Below, piece by piece: positions 21,587-46,502 of a stretch of 48,054 bases of DNA (position 1 is the first letter of the stretch; each line of letters begins with the position of its first letter). The notes under the pieces are model-generated. The model made no database searches, was not told the DNA's origin, and saw nothing but the letters and a program-made list of their open reading frames with translations. This DNA comes from a virus. Taxonomy: Duplodnaviria > Heunggongvirae > Uroviricota > Caudoviricetes. The stretch lies in the IMG/VR virus record IMGVR_UViG_2563366844_000004. One strand, 5' to 3'. A program made the translations under genes and the position numbers.

Positions 21587-22897
21587 TTAAATCCGAAGTG
21601 ATGTGACTCTTCCGGTCGGTTTGACAATAGGGAATTGCTTAACGATGAAATAACCTCCGGCATCATTCGGGTGATCATTGCCAGATTTTTTATCAGGCTC
21701 CCCCTTCTCATCCCAGACCTGTTGCTCCAGAGATTCGGCATATAACGGGCAACGCTTCACATTAACTTTATAGCGACGCTCACCATTGGCATTGCAGAAC
21801 ATTGCATTCATTGAGTTAACGCGATCTTTTACTGGCGGGTTCGAGCTGTTCACCACAACGTTAAAACCAGCCTGCTTAAGCTGGGCTATATCCGTCGTAC
21901 TTGCGTTACTTGATTTTCTGGAATCCCCGGAAGCATCTGGATAAATATAAATTTCCCTCACTTTCCGGTAATCATTCCCATCATACAGCCAGAAGCGTTC
22001 TTTAATGATGCGGATCATATCCGGCGTATCGTAGGCATTGATGATTTCAGTTACCGCACATGGAAGCCCCAAACGCAGCACATGGACGATTCCCGCCATC
22101 TTTCCAACGTTAAAATCCATCCCAATATAAATCGGCTCCCCTGGCTGCTCCACTTCTTCGCAATTATTCAGTTTCCGGTCAAACTGATGGTAAACAGTAC
22201 CACTTGTCAGGTTAGTAAACTGTCCTCGCAGATAGGCTTTAATCAGCTCTGGAGGGTATGATTCAAGAAGCGAAGGAATGTAATCTGCTGGCAGGTTCTT
22301 TTCATTATCGAAAGTAGATGCCTGCACCAGACCATACAGTGAGGCCAGCTCTGTTTTTTCACGCACGGCTTTAACAAACTGCTCGTAGACAAATTTGAAT
22401 CCTTCCGGCGTGGTTGTAACGTCAATACCGTTGCGAAGTCCATCAATCTTATAACGCATACGCGCAATTATCTTGCGCCACGCCGTTCTGGCTTTTTCCT
22501 TCGGCAAAATGTCCAGTTCATCCACCAACGCATTACCAATTTTGAAACCGACGATCGTTTGTGGCTTCTCCATCGATCTGCAGATAGTGGTTCCCCGATA
22601 CTGGCGTCCGTAATAAAAGTGAACCTCTTTATTTCCCTCATTAATTTTTACGTTCAATCCCCAGTCAGCAGCAACTTCTTCCACTGTAGGGTAAAAAATA
22701 TCGCGAATTTGGGGATACGTTGGCGCAAAATATCCCTGATTTATACCTGGATGCTCCCAAATCCCCTTGCATATGCCGCCACACCCAACCCATGTTTTGC
22801 CCGAGCCAAAACCAGCAATATAGGCTTTAAATTTATGGGGCATTGAAAGAAATCGCGCCTGAGGCACATTAAGCGTCGGAGAGATCATCTTCATCAC
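21587..22897 (-). CDS. Terminase large subunit
   Basis: 436 aa; Walker A-like YIAGFGSGKT near N-terminus; C-terminal nuclease-sized domain; upstream of portal. Confidence 0.8.
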   Translation of the reverse strand: MMKMISPTLNVPQARFLSMPHKFKAYIAGFGSGKTWVGCGGICKGIWEHPGINQGYFAPTYPQIRDIFYPTVEEVAADWGLNVKINEGNKEVHFYYGRQYRGTTICRSMEKPQTIVGFKIGNALVDELDILPKEKARTAWRKIIARMRYKIDGLRNGIDVTTTPEGFKFVYEQFVKAVREKTELASLYGLVQASTFDNEKNLPADYIPSLLESYPPELIKAYLRGQFTNLTSGTVYHQFDRKLNNCEEVEQPGEPIYIGMDFNVGKMAGIVHVLRLGLPCAVTEIINAYDTPDMIRIIKERFWLYDGNDYRKVREIYIYPDASGDSRKSSNASTTDIAQLKQAGFNVVVNSSNPPVKDRVNSMNAMFCNANGERRYKVNVKRCPLYAESLEQQVWDEKGEPDKKSGNDHPNDAGGYFIVKQFPIVKPTGRVTSLRI

Positions 22898-24218: not shown

Positions 24219-25107
24219 TTGTCACCCCCATTGATATGCAGGGTGTCTTCTTCCTGTATTTTTCGTGAAGGATTTTTACTGCAGCGTTGTTCCAGGTGAC
24301 CTGATGGTGAATGCGTTTATGGCTGGCACCCATCAGTGAGATTTTTACGCACGACGGCGCATACATGACGGAGTAAAAACTTTTAACGTAGGTTCCGGAA
24401 TCCAGATACAGCTCGGTCATTCCGCCGCTGTTTTTCTGCGTCTGTTTCTGCCCTAACTGGACAGCACCGATCGTCATAAACAATTCACCACAGCGACCGA
24501 GATTCGTGTACGTATTCACATCCTCGTTAATGCGCCCCATGAATGAGAACGGTCGATCAACCGAACAGATAAAGCTGTTCATTGCCTTGCGTTTCACCCA
24601 CGAAGCATGGCCGCCATTGTCACCAAGAAAATCCCCGCCCTGCGACATAGCGATGGAAAGAGCAGGTATTGATTCGTAGTACGCCAGCATTTCAGAAAGG
24701 ATCGCATCCAGTTTCCTTATCGGAAAATAGGCCTGGTCATAGTTGCGATCCACCCGAAACTGGAACTCGTGATAATCATCATCGAGCTGAATGAAGTATT
24801 TACACCCGACCAGTTTTGCCAGGTCGAAACAGGCATTACGGGCGTAAAAAATTGAGCGGCGGTCACAGAAATTATCGGCTTCGTCAAAACGACTGGCGAT
24901 ATCGGCTTTGGAAAACACCAGCACCTGTTCACCAAATTCAGCCATGTACTGATTCCGTGTCTTATCTTCATCATCAACAACGATAAAAATTTTCCCGGTA
25001 TAGCCAGCACGACGCAACGTCCGGTAAGTCAGAACTTTGTCCGGTCGCCCGTGAGTCAGAATAAAGGCGCAAAAATCATCACGCATATTCCTCCTCCTCA
25101 CCACCAT
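24154..25107 (-). CDS. Hypothetical protein (YdaY-position protein; LDDDY acidic motif)
   Basis: 317 aa ORF translationally coupled to the upstream ParB-like gene; occupies the position of ydaY in Rac. Confidence 0.35.
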   Translation of the reverse strand: MVVRRRNMRDDFCAFILTHGRPDKVLTYRTLRRAGYTGKIFIVVDDEDKTRNQYMAEFGEQVLVFSKADIASRFDEADNFCDRRSIFYARNACFDLAKLVGCKYFIQLDDDYHEFQFRVDRNYDQAYFPIRKLDAILSEMLAYYESIPALSIAMSQGGDFLGDNGGHASWVKRKAMNSFICSVDRPFSFMGRINEDVNTYTNLGRCGELFMTIGAVQLGQKQTQKNSGGMTELYLDSGTYVKSFYSVMYAPSCVKISLMGASHKRIHHQVTWNNAAVKILHEKYRKKTPCISMGVTNDSVFESRVSGSVPDDCTTNR

Positions 25108-25870
25108 GCATGATCTCCACCATGCGCTGCGTCATCCGGACAAATCCATTTTCAATAGCCTGCTGATAATCAATGATCACCAGCGCCGACTCCTCGAAAA
25201 AACACTGAATTTCAGAGGGGGCGTGAGCGTAATAGTCCGCAATTCTGCTGAAATTAAACACCGTGTGACGTTCTGCCGCACACAGGAGGAATTTCTCAAT
25301 ATCAGGCTCAAGGGACGCCGAACGTATCCGGCTGATCAGCTCCTGAGTTTTCGTATCGTCGTACAGTTCACTGATATCCGGTTTACCGCCCGACGGCTCA
25401 TAAACAGGCGTATCAATTTTCGTCGTATACGGCTCCTCCTCATTTCCTGTACCGGGCAAAACATCCGTCAACAGTTCATCAATTTCTGTCGGGATGAAGC
25501 CTGTCAGGGAGACATCAAAATCAGCATTGATTAGGTCCGACAGCTCCATCCGCAACAGATCTTCATCCCAGCCAGCATTCATCGGCAGGCGATTATCTGC
25601 CAGGCGGTACGCCTTTTTCTGCTCATCCGTCAGGCCAGACAGAACAATGACCGGAACAGAATCCATTTTGAGCATTTCAGCCGCCATAACACGACCGTGA
25701 CCCGCAATAATTTCGCCCTTTTCGTCAATCAGCACCGGATTAGTCCAGCCGAATTGCTTAATACTTTCTACCAGTTGTGCCACCTGCTCAGGGCTGTGCG
25801 TCCTGGCGTTGTGCGCATACGGTGACAATTCTTGTAATGGGCGATAGACTATCTTTAATTTCTCGCTCAT
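25079..25870 (-). CDS. ParB-like nuclease domain protein (YnaK-like, full length)
   Basis: 263 aa; N-terminal ParB/sulfiredoxin-type motif ...PVLIDEKGEIIAGHGRVMAA...; acidic C-terminus. Confidence 0.7.
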   Translation of the reverse strand: MSEKLKIVYRPLQELSPYAHNARTHSPEQVAQLVESIKQFGWTNPVLIDEKGEIIAGHGRVMAAEMLKMDSVPVIVLSGLTDEQKKAYRLADNRLPMNAGWDEDLLRMELSDLINADFDVSLTGFIPTEIDELLTDVLPGTGNEEEPYTTKIDTPVYEPSGGKPDISELYDDTKTQELISRIRSASLEPDIEKFLLCAAERHTVFNFSRIADYYAHAPSEIQCFFEESALVIIDYQQAIENGFVRMTQRMVEIMHGGEEEEYA

Positions 25871-29550: not shown

Positions 29551-29625
<75 letters not shown>

Positions 29626-29628
29626 ATA

Positions 29629-29704
<76 letters not shown>

Positions 29705-31845: not shown

Positions 31846-31864
31846 AACACACCCACAAATAAAT

Positions 31865-31892
31865 CAAACCCGCTACAGCGGGTTTGATTTAT
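31865..31892. terminator. Bidirectional terminator-like hairpin between the small peptide ORF and the subtilase gene
   Basis: caaacccgctacagcgggtttg: stem caaacccgc/gcgggtttg, loop taca, T-rich flank on both strands. Confidence 0.45.
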
Positions 31893-31899
31893 ATAGTTG

Positions 31900-33506
31900 T
31901 TATACGGAAACTGGCACACGAGCAGGCAATGGATAGTGAGCCCAGTTATTAGCATTTAAAGCTCTTACGCCATCAGCATAAACTTGTGTGTTTCCATCTA
32001 ATGATTTTAAAGTTACTACAATAGTTACAGGTAAAGGCTCCATTAAGGCCGGTTCATTCGCTCTCAACGTTGTTTTAGCCTGAAGAGCCCAGTTACCCGA
32101 AGTAATTCCTTTATTAAATGCCTTGCGATGAATTTTTACTGGTAACCACTTTCCACCATGCTCAATTTGAGCTCTCTCATATCCAGATTGACCGTTTTCT
32201 CCTTCCATAGGCACTTTTCCTTTTATAGTATTATTCTCAATTAAGCCAAAACTTAGCTCTACGTTCGCGCGAACATATTCACTGCCGGCATTAGGGTTCA
32301 GTGGTGGTGCATATGCAGCAGTAATTACAATCTCACCTTTAAATTTTCCATTTTGAATAAGTGCCGATGGTATGGGATAGTTATCCTTTCTCCACCTCAC
32401 CCCAGGAACCAAGAATGTTTGGAAAATCAGAGTAAACCTATCATCACTATCATATAAGGTCTCAATAACTTCATTAGGAATTCCCGCTCCCAAATAGCGT
32501 CTTTCACTTGGCGAGTAATCAGGAGAAGATAATTGAGCGGAATGAATTAATAATGCTTTAATCAATGATGGTGAAACATTAAAGTCTGTATTAGTGGCTA
32601 TTCTCTGCCATGTATGCGCAGCTAAACTTGCCACAATTGGAGCAGCAAAACTAGTACCAAAATTAGAGCAAAGCCTATTATCTGGCCCTACGACCTTTAA
32701 ACTGCTTGCTCCTACATTCCAAGGTCTATGAACCCCACCGCCAGCATGGATTATATCTGGCTTTGGAGTAAATACAGGCCCAGGGCCACGACGAGTATAT
32801 GGTGTCGGTGTTCCAATTTCACTTAAAGCATCATTAGCTTCCATATGAGAAACTGAACCAACTGTTAGTGCTCGGACTGACTCTCCAGGAGAGGAAATTA
32901 AATCAGCACCTCCAAGCGGATCAGGATTTGGCCATGTACGTATAGGTTCATCTACATAATTACCTGCAGCAACTACAAACAAAATACCAAATTTATCGCT
33001 GAGCCGATCTAACTCCATCGCAAAATCACTAAACGTCTGCTCATTACATGGTCCGCCTCCCAAAGACAAATTCCAGACTTTTATATCTGGTCTTTTATTT
33101 ACAGCATCTGCTAGCCTCAGAATTAAATCTGATATATAAGATCCATTTTCATCTAAGGCACAAACATCATGGATTTTAGATTTTGTATCAGGAATCCATG
33201 GATGATTGTCATTTAAAAAATGAGCGCCTGATATCAATGAAGACACCATAGTCCCATGTTCATAACTCGTATCAGGAGGAATTACGTATGTTTCCCTACT
33301 CACTACCCAAGGAGTAATTGTTGCCGCGATGGGGCTTACCCCAGTGTCAAATACAGCAACAATGGGTAATTCTTCTGATGGTACGGGAAAGCTATTTGTT
33401 TCAATGCCAACAGAATCACTTACACTAACCGGGAATGCTGAATATTTTGGTTCAGGAATTAACGTTCTTATACCCGGGTAATCAATGAGAATGTCTAATA
33501 TATATC
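31900..33506 (-). pseudogene. S8 subtilisin-like serine peptidase, 3-prime fragment (catalytic domain plus C-terminal domain) of an IS903-interrupted gene
   Basis: Catalytic motifs all present: VAVFDTGV (Asp), HGTMVSS (His), AAGN (oxyanion Asn), GTSFAAP (Ser); reading frame open from the IS boundary at 33506 (track ORF begins at an internal GTG at 33303). Confidence 0.8.
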
Positions 33507-34562
33507 GGCTTTGTTGAATAAATAAGATTTCGTGCGAACGACCCTGTAGCTGGCTGGATTTTCAGGCAATACGCACGCTTTCTGGCATCCCAGCCTTTGT
33601 CATCCTGTTCAACGCACGCACCATGGCCATAGCTTCCGCTACCTGACCATCGTAGTCACGCAGCGTCAGTGAATCTCCCAACAACTGCTTCATTCTGTAC
33701 ATTGCCGTTTCCGCTATCGAGCGACGGTTATATTCCGTTGTCCATTTCCACCGTGCATTGCTTCCGCTCAGCCGCTGATTAGCAACGGCACGGTTGCGGT
33801 CTGCGTACTCACCGGGCCAGTAACCTGCTCCTTTTCGGGGAGGAATAAGCGCGCTGATTTTTTTGCGGCGCAGTTCATCGTGACAGAGCCGGGTATCGTA
33901 AGCCCCGTCTGCCGCGGCTGCCCTGATTTTTCTGTGAGTCTGCCGGATAAGGCCCGGGAAGGCTTCTGAGTCCGTGACGTTATTCAGCGACAGGTCTGCA
34001 CAGACAACTTCATGTGTGTTGCTGTCAACAGCAAGATGCAACTTTCGCCAGATACGACGGCGCTCTTTGCCGTGCTTTCTGACTTTCCATTCGCCTTCAC
34101 CAAAGACCTTCAGCCCGGTGGAATCAATCACCAGGTGTGCGATTTCACCCCGGGTGGACGTTTTGAAACTGACATTAACCGACTTTGCCCGCTTACTGAC
34201 ACTGGTGTAATCCGGGCAGCGCAACGGAACGTTCATCAGGGCAAAAATGGAATCAATAAAACCCTGCGCAGCCCGCAGGGTCAGCCGGAATACGCGTTTA
34301 ATCACCAGAACGGTGGTGATGGCGAGATCAGAATAGCGCTGGGGCCTTCCTCGTGATGAAGGCGTTGCCGACTCATACCAGGCCTGAATCGCTTCATCAT
34401 CCAGCCAGAAAGTGAGGGAGCCACGGTTGATGAGAGCTTTGTTGTAGGTGGACCAGTTGGTGATTCTGAACTTTTGCTTTGCCACGGAATGGTCTGTGTT
34501 GTCGGGAGGATGCGTGATCTGATCCTTCAACTCAGCAAAAGTTCGATTTATTCAACAAAGCC
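33507..34562 (-). mobile_element. IS903 (IS5 family) insertion sequence, about 1056 bp
   Basis: Terminal inverted repeats ggctttgttgaataaat at both ends; perfect 9 bp direct target duplication atatatatc at 33498-33506 and 34563-34571; encodes 307 aa transposase. Confidence 0.9.
33562..34485 (-). CDS. IS903 transposase (DDE)
   Basis: 307 aa from GTG: VAKQKFRITNWSTYNKALINRGSLTFWLDDEAIQAWY... matches IS903 transposase as I recall it; track ORF extends 15 codons upstream. Confidence 0.9.
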   Translation of the reverse strand: MAKQKFRITNWSTYNKALINRGSLTFWLDDEAIQAWYESATPSSRGRPQRYSDLAITTVLVIKRVFRLTLRAAQGFIDSIFALMNVPLRCPDYTSVSKRAKSVNVSFKTSTRGEIAHLVIDSTGLKVFGEGEWKVRKHGKERRRIWRKLHLAVDSNTHEVVCADLSLNNVTDSEAFPGLIRQTHRKIRAAAADGAYDTRLCHDELRRKKISALIPPRKGAGYWPGEYADRNRAVANQRLSGSNARWKWTTEYNRRSIAETAMYRMKQLLGDSLTLRDYDGQVAEAMAMVRALNRMTKAGMPESVRIA

Positions 34563-35229
34563 ATATATATCTATCATTTGGGGATAAATCCATTATCCTT
34601 AATAAGGGAAGACCACATTTTTGTCTAATCTCATCATATTTAACTCCGTGTTGTTCTAATATAGAAATAACGTTTTCATAGTTGTTGTAAGTTGCATCTT
34701 CACCTGTGTACTCAAATAGTCGTACAAGGATGTTTGATGATTCAAACAAACCATCAGTGCCTCCTGGAACCTTCCTATTCTCATCCCAAGGTTCAATGCG
34801 CTCAATCGCGCTTAGATTAGCCAAAATCGCTTTAATATTCCGATGTAAAATGACTGACTCTAATACGTCAAAACAGCCGGCATGAGCAGCAACCAACATT
34901 TCATCTATTTTGGCATGACCGGCATTTTGCAATCCAGCCTCTTGAGCAATTTTGTTCGGCCTATGCGTTTTGGCTATTCCCTGGTCTCTTAATTTGAAAA
35001 CCAAAGTACCCAAGCTTCCAGGGTACTCTGAAAGTTTGGATTCTAAATAATGTTTACTGGTTGTTAAATTTCTTACTAGCCCTTGTCTATATTCGGCTGT
35101 TACATCAACCAATACCTTTGCCCCACCGCCAGCGTTTACTATTGCACCCAAGTCACTACTGGAAAAAGGGATTCTTAACATTGGGTTTGTAACTTTTGCG
35201 TTACTAAACTGTGTACCCCTTCTGCTCAT
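34563..35229 (-). pseudogene. 5-prime fragment (N-terminal about 222 aa domain) of the IS903-interrupted S8 peptidase gene
   Basis: Frame ...PNDRYI runs into the IS (W-L-C-stop inside the inverted repeat); removing IS plus one TSD copy fuses it in frame to ...LDILIDYPG... of the downstream fragment; start overlaps ATPase stop. Confidence 0.75.
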
Positions 35230-36358
35230 ATGCTCCTGACTCCTTCAGAATGTTTGAAATTACTCTTGATGTAAGTTTGTACAAATTAGCAAGAACTCTG
35301 ATAGAAAATAATTTTTTATCTTTAGAACGTAACCAACGAATTTCATCTTCGTAAGTGCTTAAATTTACACCTTCCATAAGCGATTGAGCAAGATACAAAC
35401 GCCTATACAATTTATGGTGATTTATCACACTTGCACCTTCAATAACTGCATCCCTACGTGCATCCAAGCTCACCTGTTCAATTATTGCTCCGGATAATCC
35501 TTCCGATTTTCTTGATAAATCACTTAAATCTAGATCGCTACATATCATATTCTTTAAACGATTTTTCCAAATTAACTCTCTCTGATGTATGTCAGGCAGA
35601 GGCATTGGAATTCTGAAGCTAAATCGCCTCCAGATTGCAGGATCCAGAAGTTGCTCATGGTTAGTTGAGGCAATAATTACCGTATCCTCTGATGCCGCAT
35701 CCATATTCTGCAATAGTGAAATGACAACTCGCTGAAGCTCACCTATATCTCTCTCATTACCTCTTGCTCCAGCTAAAGCATCAAATTCGTCTAAAAAAAG
35801 CACTGATGGCCTCTGCATTACATAATCGAAAACCTGTCTAAGATTTTTGCTGGTTTGTCCCAATAAACTACTAATCAAAGTATCGCAACGCACTGTAAGA
35901 AGTGGAAAATCTAAGCGGGTAGCGATGTACTTAGATAACATAGTCTTACCTGTTCCTGGCTTTCCATACACGAGCATACGACTCGGCAATGCTGCATCAG
36001 CTTTAACAAACTCATCATAACGTTGAACATTAGTGATAAACTCTTCAACACGGGTACTGATTGCTGCAGGCAGAAAAATCTCTGAACTGTCTAATTTAGG
36101 ATAACTGACATCAACAGTGTTGAGTCGACTATCAATATCTACCGGTAATGAGCCCAGAGATATCCCACCTCCAGCCCTTTGAGCTCCTGCCAACGCCTGG
36201 GGAGCTCTAAGCAACCTTTCTCTTATCATTCTGGCTTGCTTGACCTCCCCTTTTTGTTCGAGCTTATCTGCCAGCAACCCAGCATAATTACTAGCCATCG
36301 AAGCATTTGCCTTTGTTGCACCTTCAATGATTTTTAACACTTCTGATAAATAATCCAT
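35204..36358 (-). CDS. AAA+ ATPase (classical AAA domain), partner of the S8 peptidase
   Basis: 384 aa; Walker A GKPGTGKT, Walker B LFLDEFDAL, sensor-1 IIASTN, Arg finger region WRRF; 190 bp AT-rich intergenic region upstream. Confidence 0.85.
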   Translation of the reverse strand: MDYLSEVLKIIEGATKANASMASNYAGLLADKLEQKGEVKQARMIRERLLRAPQALAGAQRAGGGISLGSLPVDIDSRLNTVDVSYPKLDSSEIFLPAAISTRVEEFITNVQRYDEFVKADAALPSRMLVYGKPGTGKTMLSKYIATRLDFPLLTVRCDTLISSLLGQTSKNLRQVFDYVMQRPSVLFLDEFDALAGARGNERDIGELQRVVISLLQNMDAASEDTVIIASTNHEQLLDPAIWRRFSFRIPMPLPDIHQRELIWKNRLKNMICSDLDLSDLSRKSEGLSGAIIEQVSLDARRDAVIEGASVINHHKLYRRLYLAQSLMEGVNLSTYEDEIRWLRSKDKKLFSIRVLANLYKLTSRVISNILKESGAYEQKGYTV

Positions 36359-38535: not shown

Positions 38536-39393
38536 TTACCCCCTGAAGCCTGGCGGGATCGCACTATCCGGTAACGAGACGGTGTTAACCTGTCGGAGTA
38601 ACGTCTCAGGTCGAACACCTTTCGGCGCGAACAAGCCCTGGTATTCATTGGCGATGCTGTGTCTAATCACCTGCTCAGGTGAAAAACCCTGCTGGCGGAA
38701 TTTTTCCAGCTCCCGTATCGCCCCGTTAGCGCCCTGCTCCGTTCGAATCGGTTTTCGCAATGCCTGGCGAAATTCAACCCACTCACGCCAAAGCGAGACA
38801 GAAATCCAGTTCGGCAAAGCAATATCCAGAGGGTCAAACTTTTTGACACCTCGATTCCCCCGGGGGGGATTTAGGGGGGGATCTGTTTTTAGATCTTTAT
38901 CTGTATCTTTATTAGTTGCCTTTGTGTTGACATCATGTTCAAACACCACTTCAACATCTGTTTGAACACCTGTTAAATTTCTCTCTTGTTTTGTTTGAAC
39001 ATCTGCTTCCTTTCTGCTTCTTCTGGCCTGAACAGATGCTTTTCCTGCGGCTGATTTTTTGGTTAATTTTTCCCTAACTGATGCCAGATCTTCCGCAATC
39101 CGAAGATGCACCCATTCCTCGCCGTTATCGCAAAAAAACTCCTGCAAGGATGGTTCAACATCAGCCCATCGCTCGTTAGTCAGACGGGCAATTTTTGCCA
39201 GCCTGTTTTTAGGTATTGGCTTTCCTGTTTGCCAGTAATTGAACATCAGCAACAAATACGCACCATGCTCCTCTGCTGACAAATGCATGGTGTCAGCCAG
39301 GTAATCAGCTATGTACAGTTGCATGTATGGTAATGCGGCCATAATTGCCCCGTATGATGCTGCCCGGTGGCTTAGAATAAGCACAAACAGCAT
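38536..39393 (-). CDS. ydaU: Replication initiation O-like protein (DUF1376 N-terminus)
   Basis: 285 aa (possible start at internal MAALPYMQLYIADY), upstream of DnaC-like gene; contains candidate ori repeats within coding sequence. Confidence 0.7.
   Translation of the reverse strand: MLFVLILSHRAASYGAIMAALPYMQLYIADYLADTMHLSAEEHGAYLLLMFNYWQTGKPIPKNRLAKIARLTNERWADVEPSLQEFFCDNGEEWVHLRIAEDLASVREKLTKKSAAGKASVQARRSRKEADVQTKQERNLTGVQTDVEVVFEHDVNTKATNKDTDKDLKTDPPLNPPRGNRGVKKFDPLDIALPNWISVSLWREWVEFRQALRKPIRTEQGANGAIRELEKFRQQGFSPEQVIRHSIANEYQGLFAPKGVRPETLLRQVNTVSLPDSAIPPGFRG
38925..39006. repeat. Iteron-like repeats (candidate replication origin) inside the O-like gene
   Basis: Repeated TGTTTGAACA / TGTTCAAACA units with CATCTG flanks, preceded by a G-run and an AT-rich stretch (gatctttatctgtatctttattag). 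Confidence 0.35.
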
Positions 39394-46126: not shown

Positions 46127-46321
46127 ATGAGATATGACAATGTTAAACCATGTCCATTTTGTGGTTGTCCATCAGTAACGGTGAAAGCCATTTCAGGATA
46201 TTACCGAGCGAAGTGTAACGGATGCGAATCCCGAACCGGTTATGGTGGAAGTGAAAAAGAAGCACTCGAAAGATGGAATAAACGAACCACTGGAAATAAT
46301 AATGGAGGTGTTCATGTATAA
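46127..46321 (+). CDS. ralR: Restriction alleviation protein RalR (Lar)
   Basis: 64 aa from MRYDNVKPCPFCGCPSVTVKAISGYYRAKCNGCESRTGYGGSEKEALERWNKRTTG...; four-Cys zinc ribbon. Confidence 0.9.
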   Translation: MRYDNVKPCPFCGCPSVTVKAISGYYRAKCNGCESRTGYGGSEKEALERWNKRTTGNNNGGVHV

Positions 46322-46502
46322 AATTACCGCCACTATTGAAAAGGAAGGTGGCACTCCTACTAACTGGACAAGATATTCAAAATCTAAACTAACGAAATCA
46401 GAATGCGAAAAAATGCTCTCAGGTAAAAAAGAAGCAGCCGTTTCCAGAGAGCAGAAAGTAAAACTGATAAATTTTAATTGCGAGAGACTTCAGTCCTCGT
46501 GA
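46314..46502 (+). CDS. ydaC: YdaC-like small protein
   Basis: 62 aa from MYKITATIEKEGGTPTNWTRYSKSKLTKSECEKMLSGKKEA...; start overlaps ralR stop. Confidence 0.7.
   Translation: MYKITATIEKEGGTPTNWTRYSKSKLTKSECEKMLSGKKEAAVSREQKVKLINFNCERLQSS

Follow-up and report, generated by a model that had tools for sequence, protein, structure and literature searches.

The locus raises the question of how an S8 protease gene in a prophage came to be split by an insertion sequence, and what the split means for the system to which the protease belongs. The window, the whole 48,054-bp stretch of DNA analysed here, was examined by direct reading and by script. The element occupies positions 33507-34562 (1,056 bp, minus strand), and its limits were fixed by its boundaries, its inverted repeats and identical copies elsewhere. 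A repeat search placed the 17-nt terminal inverted repeat IRR, GGCTTTGTTGAATAAAT, at 33507-33523, the 3' end of the transposase gene, pairing with IRL at 34546-34562, the 5' end. The two are complementary at 17 of 17 positions, and the 18th base is mismatched (A at IRR versus C at IRL). The element is flanked by two identical copies of the 9-mer ATATATATC, at 33498-33506 (nt 659-667 of the protease gene ietS, read on the plus strand) and at 34563-34571. In the script search these were its sole occurrences on either strand of the whole window. We put the probability that the 9 bp next to the two repeat ends would agree by chance at about 4^-9. When 33507-34571 was deleted in silico, a single unbroken ORF of 754 aa was regained, reading ...SPNDRYILDILIDYPG... 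across the junction. A preliminary description of the sequence had claimed the inverted repeats, the 9-bp target duplication and the regained reading frame, and all were reproduced exactly, down to the residues it had given for the junction. The two outcomes that would have spoken against an insertion, repeats or a duplication that could not be reproduced and a frame that was not regained, were both checked, and neither occurred.

The transposase gene is intact and has the same orientation as ietS. In the public-assembly gene call it spans 33562-34485 (minus strand) and encodes 307 aa from a GTG at 34485, the length given in the preliminary description; in the ORF list it alternatively spans 33562-34530 (minus strand) and encodes 322 aa from a TTG. 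The product matches the Pfam families DDE_Tnp_1_5 (1e-38) and DDE_Tnp_1 (6.6e-32), and it scores 354 bits against the NCBIfam model NF033579 (IS5 transposase; cutoff 140). [quoted passage not shown] Members of this group measure about 1.05 kb, end in terminal inverted repeats of about 18 bp (GGCTTTGTTGAATAAATC) and make 9-bp target duplications, and the length, the repeats and the flanking 9-mers of the window element all correspond. Duplications of 9 bp also flank the reference copies in HK022, P7, Rts1 and Pluralibacter.

The element had been called IS903. The usual isoform threshold, by ISfinder convention, is about 90% nucleotide or about 95% amino acid identity. The IS903/IS903B copies (Tn903; Tn2680 of Rts1; phages HK022 and P7) share with the window element the group, the 17 terminal bases, a 307-aa transposase and the 9-bp duplication. 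However, they fall below that threshold: nucleotide identity was 87.7-88.0% to the IS903 annotated in HK022 and P7 and 89.6% to the original IS903B of Rts1, and the transposase matched these three references at 285-287 of 307 residues (92.8-93.5%). IS102 of pSC101, in contrast, lies within isoform range, at 94.9% nucleotide identity and 299 of 307 residues (97.4%). It also agrees in length (about 1,056-1,057 bp), in the same 17-bp termini, in its one transposase ORF and in the 9-bp duplication reported for the group. It differs in being 1 bp longer than the window element and in having C, where the latter has A, as the 18th terminal base at one end. In the orientation of the transposase, the first 733 bp of the two elements are 99.7% identical, whereas the last ~320 bp (324 alignment columns) are 84% identical, and over this part the pSC101 copy resembles IS903/IS903B. 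Either the window element or the pSC101 IS102 is therefore a mosaic. The IS102 of PMC12670165 is likewise 1,056 bp long, as calculated from a 5,424-bp transposon with a 3,312-bp passenger and halving of the remainder. By alignment to these references, the element is thus IS102-like and belongs to the IS903 group without being IS903 proper; the original label holds at the level of the group and fails at the level of the isoform. Full-length copies 100% identical to the element occur on plasmids and chromosomes of several genera and are widespread in Enterobacteriaceae; 543 E. coli records carry it at an identity of at least 99%.

The interrupted gene, described before as a subtilase gene, can be named more precisely. 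The restored 754-aa ORF is the S8 protease IetS (IteS), scoring 993 bits against PADLOC IetS PDLC02197 and 1039 bits against the NCBIfam equivalog NF042956 (IteS; cutoff 900). A Peptidase_S8 domain covers residues 268-544 and contains the catalytic motifs (D273, H303, S505). The element breaks the gene at codon 222-223 of 754, ahead of the catalytic Asp273. In the ORF list, the 5' fragment (34552-35229, minus strand) is a 225-aa ORF consisting of the native codons 1-222 followed by W-L-C-stop encoded by the element. The 3' fragment (31900-33506, minus strand; ORF and Pfam evidence) comprises codons ~220-754 with the whole S8 catalytic domain. A terminator-like hairpin with a 15-pair stem lies just downstream of ietS at 31859-31892; it was found by pattern matching only and is a candidate end of the two-gene operon. 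We searched the 3' fragment for an ATG, GTG or TTG start that would give the full catalytic triad and found none, the first being the GTG at 33303, past the catalytic Asp. A pattern search of the element found no promoter-like site pointing into the fragment, and an outward promoter driving it was rejected for want of a candidate site. Since the break precedes the catalytic Asp and no canonical start codon would rebuild an active protease, IetS activity is predicted to be lost, and we infer that the insertion yields a null allele. The inactivation proposed in the preliminary description is thereby supported, with the gene refined to the protease and toxin of the IetAS system.

The partner gene, ietA (iteA), is intact at 35204-36358 (minus strand), overlaps the start of ietS by 26 nt and shows zero differences from strain 144. 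Its product is an AAA+ ATPase (Pfam AAA, 2.6e-30) of the IetA type, with 474 bits against PADLOC IetA PDLC02196 and 526.6 bits against NCBIfam NF042959 (IteA; cutoff 510). In IetAS (IteAS) an AAA+ ATPase gene precedes and overlaps an S8 protease gene, and this arrangement is found here with the reconstructed ORF; in the window itself the protease gene is interrupted. E. coli alleles with the empty site are annotated iteS/iteA in RefSeq. PMC13069673 (citing Yamamoto 2009) and PMC5006074 name IetS as the toxin and IetA as the antitoxin. Abortive infection is its mode of action (bioRxiv 10.1101/2022.08.27.505566), defence needs the protease activity (PMC13069673), and the system is frequently prophage-borne in E. 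coli (bioRxiv 10.1101/2022.08.21.504612). By analogy with these homologues, the IetAS type in the window would have anti-phage and toxin-antitoxin activity. Unlike an intact IetAS, the window has its protease (toxin/effector) gene split and the antitoxin alone intact, which is predicted to leave the system without function.

Taken together, we consider it very probable that an active IS102-like element transposed into ietS of a Rac-type E. coli prophage and left a null protease allele. The ietA-ietS pair lies in such a prophage, integrated at or adjoining ttcA. The intact DDE transposase, the perfect 17-bp repeats and the perfect 9-bp duplication are marks of fresh transposition. The transposase would have made staggered cuts 9 bp apart, and repair would have doubled the 9-bp target. 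The null allele would represent loss of the abortive-infection toxin/effector with retention of the antitoxin ATPase IetA, so that the prophage-borne defence is probably switched off. The insertion presumably persists because the cell can do without the toxin but not without the antitoxin. The type of event is ordinary and well understood: a common insertion sequence knocking out a known two-gene system.

Comparison with relatives dates the event. The preliminary description had called for a search for empty-site alleles in related isolates, and genome comparison supplied them. Among 5,426 complete genomes of E. coli, 78 have the reconstructed empty site, with 100% identity over 1,636 and 3,506 bp and the operon in one piece; the empty alleles of these genomes and of a phage record range over 99.5-100% identity and carry the 9-mer in single copy. 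An intact ietS also occurs in phage vB_EcoS-683R6. None of the 5,426 complete genomes has an insertion at this site. The occupied site was found solely in assembly GCA_000407765.1, which matches the window at every base of the 20.7 kb aligned, and in one Logan read-set assembly, possibly from the same isolate; in the public collection the exact 225-aa truncated product is confined to two contigs, both identical to the window. The flanking prophage is 99.94-99.96% identical to the empty-site prophage of strain 144. With the empty site in 78 genomes and the occupied allele confined to those two assemblies, the insertion is recent and private, and natural empty-site alleles with near-identical flanks bear out the recent, clean insertion that had been claimed.

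We then considered the choice of target, for which a comparison with the target preference of IS903 had been suggested. A profile was built from 127 distinct flanks of the same variant of the element, 13 loci coming from genome contigs and the rest from metagenomes. On this profile the ietS site ranks in the 89th-91st percentile of possible sites, and its one-sided score is 1.22; the median is 1.74 among real sites and -1.49 among random positions. The published IS903 motif, taken from a table in PMC2577343, is matched at 6 of 10 positions, and 16% of the positions in ietS match it at least as well. The empirical profile has a T-T-Y-A signal at -14 to -11, one base farther from the duplication than in the published 5+9+5 register, and given this misfit we relied on the empirical profile. 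The site is a typical, moderately favoured target for this element, and the match to the published motif is unremarkable. An IS903-specific hotspot was rejected.

The preliminary description had further proposed the insertion as a route to silencing a costly or toxic protease. With IetS identified as a toxin, this idea is biologically reasonable. It would mean that the insertion was favoured since a prophage-borne IetS is costly or self-toxic, for instance through leaky activation or activation by another resident element. The role of IetS in a toxin-antitoxin/abortive-infection system fits this, as does the report in the IetAS literature that ietA mutants could not be constructed. Two complete genomes carry independent ietS nonsense mutations with ietA intact (Y557* in 28Eco12 and W519* in NR3736), which brings the independent hits to three in ietS and zero in ietA. 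However, given gene lengths of 2,265 and 1,155 nt, three of three hits would fall in ietS with a probability of about 0.29, so the excess is not significant. Survivorship would give the same asymmetry, since cells that lose the antitoxin die. Moreover, 76 of the 78 ietS alleles in complete genomes are intact, the insertion allele is found in one strain alone, and as a target of this element the site is nothing unusual. We therefore regard adaptive disarmament as unlikely. A stronger version, in which the insertion is a selected switch-off and belongs, with Y557* and W519*, to a series of recurrent, independent ietS knock-outs in which ietA is always left intact, is in our view distinctly improbable. 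Insertions of ISKpn/IS903B elements in mgrB of Klebsiella, listed in PMC10569121 and PMC6563726, resemble the present case in element family and as simple knock-outs with target duplication, but they differ from it in having a documented phenotype under selection, resistance to colistin. Neutral decay would leave the same picture, a private insertion, if the toxin gene is dispensable and the antitoxin gene is not. Of the silencing proposal, then, the toxic nature of the protease stands, and its loss may have been selected or neutral.

Could the split gene instead have kept or changed its activity, as a read-through fusion of the transposase to IetS(223-754) or as an N-terminally truncated protease? 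The transposase ORF and the 3' fragment do share a frame, with one TGA between them and an open frame from that TGA through the end of ietS, and one gene caller annotates a 542-aa S8 product that starts inside the end of the element. A shared frame is, however, a one-in-three coincidence; the earliest canonical start in the fragment omits the catalytic Asp, and the end of the element has no promoter-like site. In addition, an unregulated toxin domain is expected to be counter-selected, and the 3' fragment has acquired a private change, S674L (at 32144). Small amounts of a protease with a changed N-terminus could still arise if ribosomes occasionally read through the TGA or start at a non-canonical codon; neo-functionalisation is very unlikely.

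An assembly artefact, in which contigs with repeat ends were mis-joined so as to place the element in ietS, is still harder to credit. Short-read assemblies typically break at copies of insertion sequences, and the Logan contig indeed ends 30 bp inside the element. That contig was nevertheless assembled independently and has the same left junction, and the NCBI scaffold runs contiguously over both junctions. A mis-join would not produce a perfect 9-bp duplication with exact restoration of the frame, and this explanation was rejected. The converse history, in which the element was there first and precise excision produced the 78 empty sites, has a negligible probability and was likewise rejected: excision between 9-bp repeats is mechanistically possible, but it is rare, so that this model needs many independent excisions, and the empty alleles, at 99.5-100% identity and with a single 9-mer, are spread over 78 diverse genomes and a phage record against one occupied strain.

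The value of the insertion into ietS lies mainly in annotation; the kind of event is already known, and by itself it raises no new question. Defence-system finders should score this prophage as IetAS-negative, with ietS a pseudogene, and the element should be labelled IS102-like (IS903 group) rather than IS903. If the switch-off was selected, IetS would carry a measurable cost in lysogens, and the remaining IetA, alone or together with the 222-aa N-terminal fragment of IetS, might persist as an orphan antitoxin against incoming elements that bear IetAS. The locus offers a clean textbook case of inactivation by an insertion sequence, one for which empty-site alleles exist in nature for comparison, and it adds one more data point to the view that the defence and toxin-antitoxin modules of prophages generally decay through the toxin gene first.

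The insertion sequence (IS) is a 1,056-bp element at 33507-34562, seated between two copies of the 9-bp direct repeat ATATATATC at 33498-33506 and 34563-34571 (direct reading of 33300-34800 and script extraction). The 9-mer occurs twice in the window, complement counted, both times as a copy of the target site duplication. A repeat search identified terminal inverted repeats (GGCTTTGTTGAATAAAT) that are perfect over 17 bp; base 18 is mismatched (A versus C). The sole long ORF of the element (33562-34530, minus strand) encodes a transposase of 322 aa when read from TTG, and of 307 aa from GTG 34485 according to the gene call in a public assembly. When 33507-34571 was excised in silico by script, the minus-strand ORFs 34552-35229 and 31900-33303, together with the open stretch upstream of the latter, were fused into a single 754-aa ORF reading ...SPNDRYILDILIDYPG.... 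The preliminary description had proposed an element of about 1,056 bp with inverted repeats, a 307-aa transposase, identical 9-bp repeats at both flanks, and a reading frame restored by excision; each was recovered, the repeats and the junction exactly.

The transposase ORF carries the Pfam domains DDE_Tnp_1_5 and DDE_Tnp_1 and passed the NCBIfam IS5-transposase equivalog model (354 bits, cutoff 140). The element had been named IS903, which holds for the group and not for the isoform. In alignments, it shares 87.7-88.0% nucleotide identity with IS903 as annotated in phages HK022 and P7 and 89.6% with the original IS903B of Rts1/Tn2680, versus 94.9% with IS102 of pSC101. At the protein level, 285-287 of 307 residues are identical to IS903/IS903B copies and 299 of 307 to IS102. 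Judged against these aligned copies, we read the element as an IS102-like member of the IS903 group. IS102, IS602, and IS903 have been described as IS903-group members that are >94% identical, with figures implying an IS102 of 1,056 bp (PMC12670165, 2025). Compared with our element, the pSC101 IS102 copy (NC_002056, 6916-7972) is a mosaic: in transposase orientation, identity is 99.7% for the initial 733 bp and 84% for the final ~320 bp, a segment in which the pSC101 copy looks like IS903B. This pattern suggests recombination between IS903-group elements. Many Escherichia, Shigella, and E. albertii plasmids carry a full-length copy at 100% identity, and the plasmid search also returned copies at 99.9% in Klebsiella, Serratia, and Citrobacter. 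In E. coli, copies with ≥99% identity, some of them 100%, are present in 543 chromosome and plasmid records. Given these widespread identical copies, the element is evidently common and active.

The interrupted gene had been called a subtilase gene. It does encode an S8 protease, with a Peptidase_S8 domain at residues 268-544 of the reconstructed 754-aa protein, and can be refined to ietS, the toxin/effector of IetAS. The reconstructed protein scored 993 bits against PADLOC IetS (PDLC02197) and 1039 bits against the NCBIfam equivalog "S8 family anti-phage peptidase IteS" (cutoff 900). Directly upstream lies an AAA+ ATPase gene (35204-36358) that shares 26 nt with the start of ietS and whose product matches IetA/IteA (474 bits, PADLOC; 526.6 bits, NCBIfam, cutoff 510), and uninterrupted alleles carry the iteA/iteS names in RefSeq. 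IetAS of pTiC58 was first reported as a plasmid-stabilising toxin-antitoxin pair in which the protease IetS is the toxin and the ATPase IetA the antitoxin (Yamamoto 2009, as related in PMC13069673 and PMC5006074). It was later found to be anti-phage, with abortive-infection behaviour (bioRxiv 10.1101/2022.08.27.505566). Defence requires the protease activity, and attempts to obtain ietA mutants were unsuccessful (PMC13069673). In E. coli, IetAS is frequently prophage-borne (bioRxiv 10.1101/2022.08.21.504612).

The window itself is a Rac-type lambdoid prophage with intR at its right edge, carrying xisR, recET, ralR with the RalA sRNA, racR, ydaSTUV, and the IetAS pair, as well as nin-region genes, two tRNAs, lysis genes, trkG, and head and tail genes. 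IetAS forms a self-contained insert with replication genes on one side and the nin region on the other, and pattern matching placed a terminator-like hairpin directly after ietS. The RalA antitoxin sRNA (46320-46498, minus strand; Rfam RF02694, 220 bits) adjoins ralR, with which it makes up a type I toxin-antitoxin pair characteristic of Rac prophages. The tRNAs, tRNA-Gly(TCC) and tRNA-Thr(TGT), lie at 29551-29704 (minus strand), flanked by the antiterminator region and the lysis genes. IS aside, the window is 99.94-99.96% identical to the strain 144 prophage across a 34-kb overlap. Near its 3' end, the terminase-large-subunit ORF (21587-22897, minus strand) has an in-frame 78-bp stretch (21672-21749), edged by a short CGGG microhomology, that this otherwise 99.95%-identical prophage lacks. 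In the window, the DUF1376 replication gene ydaU (38536-39393, minus strand) is an uninterrupted ORF of 285 aa; its strain 144 counterpart (24772-25628 of locus L001) carries a frameshift annotation, and the two differ by a 1-bp indel at window position 38862.

We then searched 5,426 complete E. coli genomes with the reconstructed empty site (1,636 bp) and the reconstructed operon (3,506 bp). The empty site was present in 78 of them, chromosomal every time, with 100% identity in the 40 matches listed and ≥99% in the remaining 38. All 78 carried the whole operon unbroken and in one piece (99.5-100% identity in the 60 matches listed, ≥99% across all 78). One phage record, vB_EcoS-683R6, also holds the empty site. 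When the IS-containing sequence was the query, no complete genome among the 5,426 matched beyond the two flanks. A lookup of the exact truncated product (225 aa) among 153 billion gene positions yielded two contigs only, one being scaffold KE136626.1 (GCA_000407765.1) and the other from a Logan assembly of SRR640939. The scaffold agrees with the window at every base over 20.7 kb and the Logan contig over 10.7 kb; the latter has the same junction and ends 30 bp into the IS. With empty alleles in 78 genomes and the occupied site in these two contigs only, the insertion is, as judged by database comparison, real and derived, and confined to a single strain, in line with the recent, clean insertion originally proposed. 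Both assemblies may stem from the same isolate, and GCA_000407765.1 is almost certainly the source of the window.

The duplication spans nt 659-667 of ietS (codons 220-223), and the 5' product consists of 222 native residues followed by W-L-C. The break precedes all three S8 catalytic residues assigned from motifs, D273 (VFDTGV), H303 (HGTMV), and S505 (GTSFAAP). The earliest ATG/GTG/TTG past the IS in the ietS frame is GTG 33303, beyond the catalytic Asp, and no sigma-70-like site facing the 3' fragment was found in the IS end. A single TGA divides the transposase ORF from the ietS 3' fragment, and both are read in one frame (...PESVRIA*KSSQLQGRSHEILFIQQSRYILDILIDYPG...; 33507-33564 onward to 31900, minus strand). 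One public annotation even has an S8 product of 542 aa beginning within the IS end, at a non-canonical codon; we regard the shared frame as a coincidence and a curiosity. We infer that ietS is null and ietA intact, which would leave the IetAS system disarmed.

As to target choice, the site matches the IS903 motif WTTYA-N9-TRAAW (as tabulated in PMC2577343) at 6 of 10 specified positions, which is nothing unusual, since 16% of ietS positions do as well. With 8/9 A+T, the duplicated 9-mer falls in the top 6% of ietS 9-mers. An empirical profile built from 127 distinct flanks of the same end of the exact IS variant in genome and metagenome contigs (L007-L141) was weak but significant, with T at -14/-13, A at -11, and G/C at -9 and -1, the G/C preference falling on both ends of the duplication. 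It resembles the IS903 motif moved one base outward. By this profile the site ranks at the 89th percentile within ietS and the 91st within the window, and its one-sided score is 1.22 (median of real insertions, 1.74; random positions, -1.49). This marks a typical, acceptable target rather than a hotspot.

In two further complete E. coli genomes, ietS is broken with ietA intact, by the nonsense mutations Y557* in 28Eco12 (NZ_CP038505.1) and W519* in NR3736 (NZ_AP040205.1), which arose independently in the same ietS allele. We favour a tolerated, recent, and possibly neutral insertion because 76 of the 78 complete-genome alleles are intact. That selection against the toxin favoured the insertion seems unlikely: at least three independent hits in ietS and none in ietA would fit it, but they fit equally an antitoxin that cannot be lost first, the asymmetry is not significant by gene length (~0.29, our own calculation), and the prevalence of intact alleles also speaks against it. 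Within the 3' fragment, a base-by-base comparison identified S674L (TCA to TTA, window 32144) as a private change relative to strains 144, 28Eco12, and NR3736, and bit scores suggest that other top matches likewise differ from the window there. This single change may reflect relaxed constraint after inactivation.

The preliminary description was thus correct, every element lying where it had been placed, with two changes, the IS name (IS102-like, IS903 group) and the gene identity (ietS). The IS, the target system, and the type of event are all already known; the finding's worth lies in annotation and in a clean example with natural empty-site controls.
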